A stretch of DNA of 64,000 bases from Klebsiella phage vB_KpnM_Croc_ER14, in the sequence record PP738763.1, one strand, 5' to 3'. Shown here piece by piece: positions 12,581 to 15,640 of the stretch (its first letter is position 1; every line of letters starts with the position of its first letter). The notes below the pieces were generated by a model. It was given only the letters and a program-made list of their open reading frames with translations. It ran no database searches and was not told the origin of the DNA. The translations under genes were made by a program, and so were the position numbers.

Positions 12581-12952
12581 ATGTTTGATAAAGCAACCCG
12601 TCTGAAACTGCGTTTCAACTCCAACAAAGGCCAGCTGTCCGTTGAGCAGGTGTGGGATCTGAGCCTGACTGCTCTGAACGAAATGGCGAAAGGTCTGAGT
12701 CGCGAACTGAAAGCCGCTGCGGTCGACGATGAAGATTTCATCGGCAACAATACATCCGTCGACTCTCAGCTGCAGCTGCGCTTTGACATCGTCAAAAGCA
12801 TCATCAGCACCAAGCTGAAAGAGCGCGATGACAGCCTGTCCGCTGCAGAAAAACGTGAGCACAACCAGGTTATCCTGGAACTCATCAAGAAGAAACAGCA
12901 GGAAGAGCTGGCGGGTAAATCTGTTGAAGAACTGCAAGCCCTGCTGAAATAA
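12581..12952 (+). CDS. hypothetical protein (123 aa)
   Basis: Start context TTGAGGATACAAAAATG is nearly identical to that of gene 45. Its 3' end (VEELQALLK) contains the first copy of the 27-bp repeat. Confidence 0.5.
   Translation: MFDKATRLKLRFNSNKGQLSVEQVWDLSLTALNEMAKGLSRELKAAAVDDEDFIGNNTSVDSQLQLRFDIVKSIISTKLKERDDSLSAAEKREHNQVILELIKKKQQEELAGKSVEELQALLK
12922..12948 (+). repeat. 27-bp direct repeat copy 1 (TGTTGAAGAACTGCAAGCCCTGCTGAA)
   Basis: Identical 27-mer recurs at 15549-15575. Lies at the 3' end of the upstream gene. Confidence 0.85.
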
Positions 12953-12973
12953 ATCCGTCAACTCCGGTCTTAG

Positions 12974-12996
12974 AAACCCCGCCCTGTGCGGGGTTT
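12974..12996 (+). terminator. terminator hairpin (AACCCCGCC-CTGT-GCGGGGTTT)
   Basis: GC hairpin plus T-rich tail. Near-identical copy at 15603-15624. Confidence 0.6.
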
Positions 12997-13050
12997 CAAT
13001 TTGTGTATCGCAGTATAATACATATGTAAACTAAACTATGGGGCTACGTT

Positions 13051-13905
13051 ATGTTTCGTTTGAGATTGAACGACCAAGATGTGTTCTACAAACACTTCAC
13101 CTTTCCAGGCGGTGAGGAACATATCAAGATTCAAAAGGCGGGTATCCCTGTTGGTAAAATCCAGACAGTGGTAATTGACGCCCACATTAAATCGTCAGCA
13201 GACTTCATTGAGCTGGCACTGTTGGTGAACGCCGTGCGCGGCCTGGGTAATGTCGACCGACTGACAACATTTCATGCTTATATCCCTTATTTTCCATATG
13301 CCCGCCAGGATCGTCATTGCGACTTTGGTGAACCTCTTTCGGTGAAGTGGGCAGCAGAGTTCATCAATAGTATGAACTTTGACCGTGTGGCGATCAAAGA
13401 CCCTCACAGCCATGTTGTGTCTTCTCTGATCAACAACGTCCATGTTGTCCCGCAAGATTACATTGCTCGCCAGTACCTGGGATGGTTCATTCGGGGCAAC
13501 AACGCTGTGTTGGTAGCTCCCGATGGCGGCGCGGCGAAGAAGACTGAAACCCTCAGCCTATCGCTGGATGGCGTTCCTGTTGTCTACGGACATAAGAACC
13601 GCGACACCAAGACAGGCGAGATCATTGGGGTGAGTATTACAAACCCTGAACTGATCAGAGACCGCTATCTGGTTGTGGTTGATGATATCTGTGACGGCGG
13701 GCGAACGTTTGTTGAGCTGGGCAAAGAGCTTCAGAAGCACGAGCCTAAGCACATGACCCTCTTCGTTACCCACGGCATTTTCAGCAAAGGCCTCTCTGTG
13801 TTCGACGGGATCTACGATGCTGTGTATGCCGACACTGTCTGGTGGGAGAACATCACCGCCGACGGTCTTCCATTCAAAACTGAAAATACAGGACGTGTAA
13901 AATGA
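13051..13905 (+). CDS. ribose-phosphate pyrophosphokinase (Prs)-family enzyme; possibly ADP-ribose pyrophosphokinase-like
   Basis: PRPP-synthetase motifs FPYARQDR (flexible loop) and VVVDDICDGGRT (PRPP/ribose-5-P binding loop). 284 aa, shorter than canonical Prs. Confidence 0.8.
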   Translation: MFRLRLNDQDVFYKHFTFPGGEEHIKIQKAGIPVGKIQTVVIDAHIKSSADFIELALLVNAVRGLGNVDRLTTFHAYIPYFPYARQDRHCDFGEPLSVKWAAEFINSMNFDRVAIKDPHSHVVSSLINNVHVVPQDYIARQYLGWFIRGNNAVLVAPDGGAAKKTETLSLSLDGVPVVYGHKNRDTKTGEIIGVSITNPELIRDRYLVVVDDICDGGRTFVELGKELQKHEPKHMTLFVTHGIFSKGLSVFDGIYDAVYADTVWWENITADGLPFKTENTGRVK

Positions 13906-15554
13906 GCATGCGCCACTTAGATCCAATCCATGCAATCGACTTCTACAAATCAGGGCACATCTATCAATTCCCTGAAGGTAGCGAGCTGGTGTTCTCCAAC
14001 GGAACTCCACGCTCCAACAAACTGTTCAACTCCCACCTGCCGAAGAACGGCGTGGTGGTCTGGGGTATCCAGGGATTCATGACCTGGTTCCACGAACTGT
14101 TTGATGAAGCGTTCTTCCAGCGCCCAAAGGCCAAGGTGCTGAAGAAGTATGCCCGTCGAATGAACAAAGTTCTCGGACCAGGCCGCGTTGGGACAGAGCA
14201 TATCGAAGCCCTGCACGACCTCGGCTACCTGCCTATTGAAGTCCGTGCTCTGCCCGAAGGCACCATGTGCCCGTATGGTGTTCCGGTATATGTGATGTTC
14301 AACACCTTGCCGGAGTTCTACTGGCTGACCAACTATCTGGAGACGGTGTTCAGTTCTGAGATCTGGAAGCCGATGACGAACGCCACCATTGCCCTGCACT
14401 ACAAAGCACTGATGGTGAAAGCCGCTATCGCTACAGGCGTGTCGCCGGACCATTGGTTCATCGACTACCAAGGCCACGACTTCTCCTTCCGTGGTATGAG
14501 CGGGTGGCATGACGCGGCGTCTTCCGGTTCTGGCCATCTGGTGTTCTTCAAAGGCACCGACACCAACCCTGCCCTGGACTTCGTTGAAGAGTATTATGGC
14601 GCGGATATCGATGAAGACTATGTCGTTGCTGGCTCTGTTGCAGCCACCGAACACGCCGTGATGTGCATGGGCACGAAAGATGGCGAATTCGAAACCTTCG
14701 AGCGCCTGATTTCTAAAGTCTATCCGGACGGGATTGTCAGTATCGTTTCTGATGCATGGGATTACTGGCAGGTCATCGACGACTATCTGCCGCGCCTCAA
14801 AGATATCATCATGGCGCGTAATGGCAAAGTTGTGATCCGCCCCGACTCTGGTGACCCGGTGCATATCGTCGGTGGTTATCGCGTCGAAGAATTTTGCAAT
14901 GAGCAGGATTTTTACGATAACGACCCACGTGAAGAAACTGAAGTTATCTATCTCAAAGAAGAAAACAGATACCATATTCTGGAACAATATCAGTTTAATC
15001 AGATCGGGGAAGAGATTTCTCGTTCAGAAGCGGTCGGTTCTATCCAGCGCCTATGGGAGATCTTTGGCGGAACCCAGACCGAAACGGGCCACTTCCTGTT
15101 GGATGAGCACATCGGCCTGATCTACGGTGACTCCATTACCCTGAGCCGTGAAGATCAGATCTTTGCTCGTCTGGCTGAACGGAATTTCGCTTCCATCAAC
15201 GTAGTGTTCGGTATCGGTTCCTATACTTACCAGATGAACACCCGTGATAGTACCGGGACGGCGGTGAAAGCAACGGCTGGGAAGGTCAACGGTGAATTCC
15301 GTGAGATTTTCAAAGAACCGAAGACTGACAAAGGTGGTACGAAGAAATCTGCGCGTGGTTTCCTTAAAGTCATTAAAGACTCTCAGGGTAAACTAGTGTT
15401 GGTTGATGGTATCACGTTTGACCAGGTGCAAGACGCAGATAATCAGCACCAACTGGTTTACCGTGATGGCAAGTTCTTCAATACTCAGACTCTGGAAGAT
15501 GCGCGCGTTCGTGCCGCTCCTCTGGTGGAAGAATTGGCATCTCAAATATGTTGA
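13902..15554 (+). CDS. nadV: nicotinamide phosphoribosyltransferase family (Nampt/NadV-like)
   Basis: ATGA start-stop overlap with the Prs-like gene. Collinear Nampt motifs: DFYKSGH, PEFYWLTNYLET, FRGMSG, FKGTDT, VAATEHAVM, SIVSDAWDYW, IRPDSGDP. Has a roughly 50-aa insertion relative to canonical Nampt. Confidence 0.85.
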   Translation: MSMRHLDPIHAIDFYKSGHIYQFPEGSELVFSNGTPRSNKLFNSHLPKNGVVVWGIQGFMTWFHELFDEAFFQRPKAKVLKKYARRMNKVLGPGRVGTEHIEALHDLGYLPIEVRALPEGTMCPYGVPVYVMFNTLPEFYWLTNYLETVFSSEIWKPMTNATIALHYKALMVKAAIATGVSPDHWFIDYQGHDFSFRGMSGWHDAASSGSGHLVFFKGTDTNPALDFVEEYYGADIDEDYVVAGSVAATEHAVMCMGTKDGEFETFERLISKVYPDGIVSIVSDAWDYWQVIDDYLPRLKDIIMARNGKVVIRPDSGDPVHIVGGYRVEEFCNEQDFYDNDPREETEVIYLKEENRYHILEQYQFNQIGEEISRSEAVGSIQRLWEIFGGTQTETGHFLLDEHIGLIYGDSITLSREDQIFARLAERNFASINVVFGIGSYTYQMNTRDSTGTAVKATAGKVNGEFREIFKEPKTDKGGTKKSARGFLKVIKDSQGKLVLVDGITFDQVQDADNQHQLVYRDGKFFNTQTLEDARVRAAPLVEELASQIC

Positions 15555-15575
15555 AGAACTGCAAGCCCTGCTGAA
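15549..15575 (+). repeat. 27-bp direct repeat copy 2
   Basis: Identical to 12922-12948. Begins inside the nadV stop codon (TGT TGA). Confidence 0.85.
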
Positions 15576-15602
15576 TAGCCAGCTGCCTTCGGCGCGATAA
15601 TG

Positions 15603-15624
15603 AACCCCGCCATGTGCGGGGTTT
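15603..15624 (+). terminator. terminator hairpin (AACCCCGCC-ATGT-GCGGGGTTT), duplicate of 12974-12996
   Basis: GC hairpin followed by ATTTTA. Confidence 0.6.
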
Positions 15625-15640
15625 ATTTTAGGTGAAGAAT

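Follow-up and report, generated by a model that had tools for sequence, protein, structure and literature searches.

Probable junction scar beside a NARP1 counter-defence operon in Klebsiella phages of the genus Taipeivirus

The window analyzed here is a 64-kb stretch (64,000 nt) of the Klebsiella phage vB_KpnM_Croc_ER14 (sequence record PP738763.1), in which two overlapping genes, adps and namat, stand directly 3' of a resident gene of 123 amino acids (aa), p123. The end of p123 and a terminator hairpin recur at the far end of the gene pair. We consider it likely that this duplicated 27-mer and hairpin are the junction scar of a recombination event that placed the operon, assigned below to NAD+ reconstitution pathway 1 (NARP1), behind the p123 terminator in one sub-lineage of Klebsiella Taipeivirus phages. 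A preliminary description of the window, made from its letters alone, had taken the phage to be T4-like; its best matches are instead to the Ackermannviridae, genus Taipeivirus (Vi1-like), and not to the Straboviridae. The window is 98.5% identical to phage 0507-KN2-1, and the region of interest is 98-99% identical to Taipeivirus phages 0507-KN2-1, XDRKpn-1, Madison and others. The features of the locus are as follows.

12581..12952, + strand: p123, the resident 123-aa gene (phrog_2018, function unassigned), whose last 32 nt and terminator are the duplicated target
12917..12948, + strand: left repeat copy, 32 nt, with the exact 27-mer at 12922-12948; encodes the p123 C-terminal K-S-V-E-E-L-Q-A-L-L-(K)
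12949..12974, + strand: left spacer (stop codon and TCCGTCAACTCCGGTCTTAG), nearest to Agtrevirus/Kuttervirus-type spacers
12975..12996, + strand: left terminator hairpin T1', whose 3' stem end and T-run form the left joint GGGGTTT-CAATTTG
12995..13019, + strand: promoter-like element of the cassette, TTCAAT-N13-TATAAT, conserved 5' of prs in all genera; putative promoter
13051..13905, + strand: adps, Prs-like, 284 aa, predicted NARP1 step 1 (ADP-ribose to ADPR-PP); Pfam Pribosyltran and Pribosyltran_N, phrog_619
13902..15554, + strand: namat, Nampt-like, 550 aa, predicted NARP1 step 2 (ADPR-PP and nicotinamide to NAD+); Pfam NAPRTase
15543..15550, + strand: right joint CAAATATG, from the 8-nt microhomology CAAATCTG between the native namat end and p123
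15544..15575, + strand: right repeat copy, a non-coding remnant of the p123 3' end except for Cys550 and the stop codon of namat
15576..15602, + strand: right spacer (TAGCCAGCTGCCTTCGGCGCGATAATG), of the resident Taipeivirus allele type
15603..15624, + strand: right terminator hairpin T1'', a predicted fold, standing where the native terminator T3 would end namat

The exact 27-mer TGTTGAAGAACTGCAAGCCCTGCTGAA occurs twice, at 12922-12948 and 15549-15575; no further copy was found in the window, even with three mismatches allowed, and the expected count from 100 shuffles is 0. The likeness reaches 5 nt further upstream (12917-12948 and 15544-15575, 31/32 identical), and this is the longest direct repeat in the window. 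Each 27-mer is followed, after 26 nt on the left and 27 nt on the right, by a hairpin of the form AACCCCGCC(C/A)TGTGCGGGGTTT (12975-12996 and 15603-15624, 21/22 identical). A third hairpin, at 52704, is only 73% similar, and no other hairpin in the 64 kb resembles them. Both hairpin units fold stably (-20.9 and -26.6 kcal/mol, z about -3) and are followed by T-runs, and the left one passes a terminator scan. The two stretches that separate 27-mer from hairpin, the spacers, share only 41% identity. Between the repeat copies lie only two real open reading frames (ORFs), 13051-13905 and 13902-15554, overlapping in ATGA.

Much of the preliminary description is borne out by these results. It had placed two 27-mer copies at these coordinates, the first at the end of p123 (recovered by exact search), with a near-identical hairpin about 25 nt after each and a 2.6-kb interval holding only two NAD-related genes (as in the ORF list), and the self-comparison that it proposed returns this repeat as the longest of the window. 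It had also named a widespread motif as a possible objection; the repeat is locus-specific, with two copies in 64 kb. One detail needs correction: the right 27-mer does not begin inside the namat stop codon, as had been stated, but at the last sense codon, TGT (Cys550), and the TGA stop (15552-15554) lies within it.

Some minor observations concern the repeat itself. A 65-aa ORF in another frame (window 15403-15600) reads through the right repeat, ending in VEELQALLNSQLPSAR and a stop; it is almost certainly not a gene, being an out-of-context p123 remnant. An Rfam match to RsmY at window 12887-12997, covering the p123 end and the left terminator, scored 22.3 bits against a gathering threshold of 57 (E=0.017) and, being sub-threshold, was taken as a chance product of the terminator hairpin. 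When metagenomes were scanned with a 20-mer of the repeat, the 12 contigs obtained were unrelated, and none had Ackermannviridae proteins.

NARP1 consists of Adps and Namat (Osterman et al. 2024, bioRxiv 10.1101/2024.02.11.579819). The table of Prs/Adps homologues in that work (SupTable_Prs) lists the 0507-KN2-1/Menlow protein, to which the window Adps is 99% identical, and in its supplementary tables the SKML-39 homologue of the second gene is marked as an 'Adps-associated' Namat; membership in the Adps clade was taken from the same paper. The window genes are adjacent, with a 4-nt overlap (ATGA, 13902-13905), and so lie within the 10 genes of adps in which a NARP1 namat is sought. Among solved structures the best relative of the window Namat is SpbetaL1 Namat (9W5X/9W5W), with E=1e-135; human and other true Nampts reach 1e-51. 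It keeps the catalytic Arg (R306 equivalent), and its GIGSYTYQ helix resembles GIGSFTYQ of SpbetaL1 Namat; in the alignment, one clamp-helix aromatic of SpbetaL1 Namat stays aromatic (F392 to Y) and the second does not (Y396 to M). Adps has 284 aa against ~315-326 aa in matched bacterial and human Prs chains, and its PDB alignments stop near residue 245-262; Adps proteins are described as shorter than Prs, without the C-terminal alpha11-alpha12 module (10.1101/2024.02.11.579819). Because of these literature table entries and the sequence similarity, we assign the pair to the known NARP1 counter-defence pathway, in which ADP-ribose (ADPR) would be converted to ADPR-PP and then to NAD+. It is the same overlapping Prs-like/Nampt-like phage gene pair, with nothing different in kind in the window, although SpbetaL1 Namat lacks a ~50-aa hypervariable segment (residues ~326-377) that the window Namat has. 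The surrounding stretch of namat (window 14793-15101, residues ~298-400) is 63-72% identical in nucleotides to every other lineage and the rest of namat 84-98%, and the segment looks like a lineage-specific replaced insert.

NARP1 itself, its variable presence in Agtrevirus and its link to NAD+-depleting defence are already known. In the available parts of two Agtrevirus papers, the pair is reported from 8/14 Agtrevirus genomes and tied to NAD+-depleting defences (Sorensen et al. 2023, PMC10791037; review PMC11721090). These describe the same gene pair with variable presence, and the same parts make no mention of junctions, a second position, a flanking duplication or the Taipeivirus arrangement. 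We found the second insertion position, the joints and the duplication described nowhere in the literature.

Both ends of the cassette can be placed to the base by comparison with genomes in which the operon occupies another, distal position, farther downstream by two genes. There the operon has a terminator of its own, T2 (ACGCCCAGTATATTTGCTGGGCGTTT), and the conserved element TTTCAATTTGTG..CAGTATAATAC on its 5' side, and the terminator T3 (GGGGAGGAGACTCCCCTGTTTT) stands 3' of namat; T3 is absent from the window, where the promoter-like element follows directly 3' of the p123 terminator T1. The left joint, GGGGTTT-CAATTTG, falls at the stem end and T-run common to T1 and T2 (GGGGTTT / GGGCGTTT, then CAATTTG...). 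The right joint falls at the common 8-mer CAAATCTG, with one synonymous change in all proximal-type genomes, that is, those with the operon directly 3' of p123; the p123 counterpart of the 8-mer, at 12916-12923, reads TAAATCTG in the window. The native namat end is ...TCACAAATCTGAtaa, p123 has GGCAAATCTGTTGAAG 32 nt before its end, and the right junction of the window reads TCTCAAATATG joined to TTGAAGAACTG.... In p123 coordinates the left joint is the more downstream of the two, and for this reason ~80 nt (p123 end, spacer and T1) are present on both sides of the insert.

The consequence for namat is small. In other genera the protein natively ends in ...(A/E)ELASQI and a stop (SKML-39, May, P46FS4 and others). 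In the window it gains one codon, the last codon (Cys550) and the stop are supplied by the p123 fragment, and the terminator too comes from the p123 remnant instead of T3; T1'' is thus predicted to end the namat transcript, a role that T3 has in the native operon. A reading of the C-terminus VEELASQIC as a frameshifted p123 remnant (QEELAGKSVEEL) was rejected, since ELASQI with its stop is native elsewhere and only the last codon and stop are p123-derived.

Nine genes of the neighborhood were mapped by tblastn onto 23 related loci. The resident features downstream of the cassette that enter this comparison are given here.

15641..16018, + strand: Zn gene, a resident downstream gene for a DUF3268 zinc-finger protein (Pfam PF11672)
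16019..16774, + strand: p251, a 251-aa gene with an N4 gp49 / Sf6 gp66 domain (Pfam PF13876)
16775..16838, + strand: p251-p118 intergenic region, the empty distal site by gene-order comparison

The interval from p123 to the 732-aa gene is highly plastic, and the following orders were found.

Window type (proximal): p123-adps-namat-Zn-p251-p118, in the window, 0507-KN2-1 and Magnus
Proximal, no Zn: p123-adps-namat-p251-p118, in Menlow and cp21
Proximal, p251 mostly deleted: p123-adps-namat-Zn-p118, in KP6F1
Distal: p123-(Zn)-p251-adps-namat-(p118), in May and Bullseye (Taipeivirus), SKML-39 and P46FS4 (Agtrevirus) and SenASZ3 (Kuttervirus)
Operon absent: various orders, in HMGUkp5, KWBSE43-6, T751, PWKp5 and three IMG/VR contigs
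Remnant only: promoter and partial genes, in LIMEstone1 and one IMG/VR contig

RCIP0012 is another distal-type Taipeivirus. In distal-type genomes the stretch corresponding to 16775..16838 is replaced by T2, promoter, adps, namat and T3. The 27-mer and hairpin are duplicated only where the operon stands directly 3' of p123 (window, 0507-KN2-1, Menlow, KP6F1, cp21 and Magnus) and are single in every distal-type and cassette-free genome. The right junction is found in 23 database records, all of Klebsiella phages and all sharing the same joint; 17 further Taipeivirus-like records have a single unit only. The distal left junction occurs in 57 records, from phages of Salmonella, Dickeya, Shigella and Enterobacter and three Klebsiella phages, spanning Kuttervirus, Agtrevirus, Limestonevirus and Taipeivirus, with no duplication there. 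The same genes without a flanking duplication had been named in the preliminary description as an observation that would count against a cassette; they do occur, in most relatives (these 57 records of four genera), but at a different position. The wide distribution of the distal position, together with the duplicated p123 fragment, argues that the window arrangement is derived, a relocation or re-acquisition rather than the primary acquisition, and the ancestral gene order is predicted to have the operon 3' of p251. Depending on the genome, the T1 unit is succeeded by the operon, the Zn gene, p251 or p118, and it bounds indel or replacement differences among relatives. Two records, KFM-TASP06 and TTM-TASP117, have the left joint together with the native namat end and T3, and no duplication on the right. 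The claim that the pair is accessory cargo holds, as it is a self-contained cassette that is present, absent or relocated among relatives.

The operon also decays by internal deletion: LIMEstone1 (7033-7452) keeps the promoter element fused to the last ~110 namat codons, and an IMG/VR contig (L010, 8664-8999) keeps a prs(1-89)/namat fragment. The family profile phrog_12872 is equivalent to a fusion of Prs residues 1-222 with NadV residues 226-549.

An empty site, which the preliminary description had predicted, exists in the Klebsiella phage HMGUkp5. This genome has p123, one 27-mer and one hairpin with the resident spacer allele, and the Zn gene directly 3' of the single T1 unit; its flanks are 94-99% identical to those of the window, and tblastn of the whole genome with both NARP1 proteins gave nothing better than E=0.25. 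Its junction, GAAATAAATCCG joined to CTGCCTTCGGCGCGATAATG, is the unduplicated allele of KWBSE43-6, T751 and PWKp5. HMGUkp5 is best read as never having had the proximal insertion, or as having replaced it long ago.

The two spacers of the window have different affinities. The left one shows 0.64-0.75 identity to Agtrevirus/Kuttervirus-type alleles and 0.50-0.61 to resident Taipeivirus alleles; the right one shows 0.81-0.87 identity to the resident alleles of KFM, HMGUkp5, T751 and KWBSE43-6. That the 27-mer is nonetheless exact is because it is a conserved p123 coding end, identical in most single-copy Taipeivirus alleles despite differing spacers. The two copies therefore look like two parental alleles rather than one sequence copied in place. 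The underlying observation of the preliminary description was correct and its cassette and scar reading largely so: of the target duplication it had proposed, the duplication of the p123 3' end and terminator by short-homology recombination stands, and what does not is the idea of a pristine copy. The right 27-mer has two mismatches in KP6F1, and three or more alleles of the right copy are known, with either the Zn gene or p251 next to them. These mismatches and multiple alleles argue against a sequence-specific function of the right 27-mer, and the alleles standing before either Zn or p251 show that later exchanges have used the T1 unit as a homology anchor.

At four-fold sites, identity between the window and May/Bullseye is 70-91% in the flanks and 50-60% in the cassette. 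Against Agtrevirus/Kuttervirus the values are 37-49% for p406/p678/p732, 51-68% for p123 and 63-73% for the cassette, and in 150-nt windows the cassette reaches 97-98% nucleotide identity to the Kuttervirus SenASZ3. This discordance argues that the cassette has a history different from that of its flanks and did not descend from a May-type distal cassette, and an exchange between genera is indicated by these comparisons. Tests of GC content, GC content at third codon positions (GC3) and base composition for foreign origin gave no signal (cassette 0.50-0.51 GC and 0.57-0.60 GC3, as in p678, p123 and p732), and codon usage of the cassette is not distinctive. The preliminary description had suggested comparing GC and codon usage with the flanks; no compositional distinctness exists, and the foreign history is visible only at synonymous sites.

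A route may be proposed from what is observed: both joints, the duplicated stretch, an empty site, and a history that differs between cassette and flanks. A self-contained operon (promoter-like element, adps and namat) would have been joined directly 3' of the p123 terminator, most simply in an event between two DNA molecules. This could have been an unequal crossover at CAAATCTG in co-infecting or concatemeric genomes, between a p123-T1-promoter-adps-namat form and a cassette-free genome. Alternatively, a circle carrying T1 and the operon, closed at CAAATCTG, may have entered the genome by homologous recombination within T1. In either case the cassette would have brought the left spacer along from a donor foreign to the resident lineage, and the right spacer would be the resident allele. 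Since then, the Zn gene, p251, p118 or the operon has been swapped downstream of the T1 unit, with that unit as homology anchor. KFM-TASP06 and TTM-TASP117, with the left joint, the native namat end and T3, have the structure of the first partner in the unequal crossover; this shows an intermediate of that form to exist, without making either of them the parent. A clean two-step path directly from one of them was rejected, given a breakpoint in namat near 14790 and poor assemblies.

Several points weigh against this reconstruction. The path can be given only in outline: the KFM/TTM cassette is 96-100% identical to that of the window only to ~14790 and 65-89% beyond, and both records are 'partial genome' assemblies of the same study and prone to error. 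The spacer comparison is made on ~25-nt sequences and is weak alone. A genome that could have been the donor, with the left spacer allele in a context other than the duplicated one, was not found, and IMG/VR scans for the two unusual spacer alleles returned none for the right and only Menlow for the left. The right copy differs in its stop region (GAATAGCCAG vs GAAATAAATCCG), which the proposed route does not account for and which was seen in no unduplicated context. Finally, the sequence shared at the left joint is 4-7 nt, and the joint could be a chance break at a hairpin.

A May-like Taipeivirus might instead, in a single lineage, have copied its distal operon to the proximal site and lost the distal copy, with no foreign donor involved. 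Distal-type Taipeiviruses exist (May, Bullseye and RCIP0012), and template switching within one genome or concatemer could give the same joints; however, three events would be needed, the spacers are different alleles with 41% identity, and the four-fold sites of the cassette agree with May/Bullseye at 50-60%, against 70-91% in the flanks, and are nearer to Agtrevirus/Kuttervirus cassettes (63-73%). We regard such a translocation as very unlikely. The reverse order of events, in which the duplicated arrangement came first and HMGUkp5-like cassette-free genomes arose by recombination between the direct repeats, would make the repeats an excision device. Direct repeats of 32 and 22 nt around 2.6 kb are plausible substrates in a recombination-proficient phage, the flanks of HMGUkp5 are 94-99% identical to those of the window, and excision of genes flanked by promoter-early stem-loops (PeSLs) is known from T4-type phages. 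The HMGUkp5 junction (GAAATAAATCCG joined to CTGCCTTCGG...) is nevertheless neither of the two that a window-like parent should produce: GAATAGCCAG is expected if the crossover falls in the 27-mer, and the TCAACTCCGG spacer if it falls in the hairpin. Such a deletion product was seen in no database genome; single-copy matches to the right unit go no higher than 94%. HMGUkp5 as a repeat-by-repeat deletion of a window-like genome was rejected on its junction allele, and an origin of cassette-free genomes by excision seems improbable. An insert between direct repeats with an empty site in a relative would also fit a transposon-like or homing-type mobile element with target-site duplication. Both ORFs of the insert, however, encode metabolic enzymes, and neither a transposase nor an integrase or homing endonuclease is found within it; apart from the hairpins, which are self-complementary, terminal inverted repeats are lacking, and a duplication of ~80 nt with a divergent interior is far above transposon target duplications. 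We exclude a transposon because no recombinase and no terminal inverted repeat is present, and the chance that any such element is involved is negligible.

The likeness to the PeSLs of T4-type phages, raised in the preliminary description, deserves fuller comparison. PeSLs are composite motifs of ~100 bp, made up of an AT-rich tract, a sigma-70 promoter and a stem-loop, dispersed in ~50 copies per T4-type genome and concentrated in its hyperplastic regions (Arbiol et al. 2010, PMC2839356; Comeau et al. 2014, PMC4122927), and recombination between flanking copies excises or inserts genes (PMC2839356; PMC4122927). A dispersed composite promoter/stem-loop motif might likewise flank the cassette here, with exchange between motif copies. 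The left boundary is indeed a terminator abutting a promoter-like element, and the motif TTCAAT-N13/14-TATAAT occurs five times on the + strand of the window against 0.05 expected, each copy just 5' of a gene start and several overlapping stem-loops (8891-8915, 12995-13019, 16785-16809, 44956-44981 and 61909-61934, + strand). In the copies at 8891 and 61909 a GC-rich hairpin with a T-run after it has the TATAAT in its loop; in the copy at 44956 a hairpin loop contains the TTCAAT. The copy at 16785-16809 is p118's own TTCAAT-N13-TATAAT element, within the empty distal site, and the distal cassette takes its place. By analogy, these copies look like composite promoter/stem-loop elements comparable to PeSLs, with non-sigma-70 spacing. 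The duplicated sequence at the cassette is another matter, consisting of a p123 coding end and one locus-specific terminator (two copies per 64 kb), free of a promoter, in a phage that is not T4-type. Its right copy directly precedes the ribosome-binding site and ATG of the next gene, and the right joint lies within coding sequence at an 8-nt microhomology and not in a regulatory motif. A scan found no sigma-70-type site at either repeat copy, and both the -35-like element and the 13-14 nt spacing are off the sigma-70 consensus. A PeSL-type system as the cause of the arrangement is accordingly given little credence.

As in PeSL modules, an accessory module lies in a hyperplastic region with stem-loop terminators at its bounds and its own promoter-like element, it is present, absent or relocated among close relatives, and insertion by a circular intermediate is possible. 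Unlike a PeSL module, it is found in the Ackermannviridae and is marked by a one-off duplication of a gene end and terminator, not a dispersed motif, with one joint in coding sequence; encapsidated mini-circles belong to the PeSL system of T4-type phages. The cassette shuffling may be called similar in spirit to PeSL exchange, by analogy, without being a PeSL. Another comparison is with the morons and the mosaic joints, products of illegitimate recombination, of the Hendrix/Hatfull model; morons were defined in temperate phages and benefit the lysogen. Like a moron, the window cassette is an independent transcription unit (promoter, genes and terminator) between resident genes, with few-base joints at gene boundaries and a history unlike that of its flanks; unlike one, it is carried by a virulent phage, and its cargo serves the phage itself as counter-defence.

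The junction-scar reading can be extended to a broader proposal, that the T1 unit is a dedicated, family-wide recombination hub through which NARP1, DUF3268, gp49/66-like and p118 modules are swapped between Ackermannviridae genera and hosts, with circles carrying one T1 unit as a possible route. We hold this extension to be speculative and rather doubtful. If true, the hub would be a functional analogue of T4-type PeSL mini-circles and a vehicle spreading counter-defence among therapeutic Klebsiella and Salmonella phages.

The locus is a clean, base-resolved case of short-homology module shuffling with a known counter-defence operon and brings no new principle. Its cargo belongs to a validated counter-defence class that rebuilds NAD+ after depletion of the Thoeris, DSR, SIR2-HerA or SEFIR type, and the phages concerned are therapy candidates against carbapenem-resistant Klebsiella. 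The NARP1 operon is gained, lost, relocated and exchanged between genera. The exact diagnostic junction sequences allow simple typing of phages for NARP1 status, and near-isogenic natural pairs with and without NARP1 (0507-KN2-1-like vs HMGUkp5) offer a system for its contribution to host range.

Further observations concern the resident neighborhood. No Pfam match was found for p123, which is present in all relatives examined, LIMEstone1 excepted. The compositional outliers of the region are p251 and p118, at 0.37-0.38; in this part of the window (16000-17500) GC is 0.37-0.41 and GC3 0.35-0.39, against ~0.50 on either side; it is these swappable genes, and not the NARP1 cassette, that stand out in base composition. 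ARAGORN calls a 91-nt tRNA-Thr(GGT) at window 10918-11008 on the - strand, antisense to a conserved 678-aa ORF (10508-12544), and Rfam finds no tRNA at 10918-11008. The GenBank records of KP6F1, T751, PWKp5 and KFM-TASP06 annotate the tRNA-Thr and leave the 678-aa ORF unannotated, and the call is probably a propagated false positive. In LIMEstone1 (5146-6866), where p123 is missing, the homing endonuclease gene F-LimVI stands beside a truncated homologue of the 678-aa gene, a further sign that this neighborhood is a recombination hot spot.

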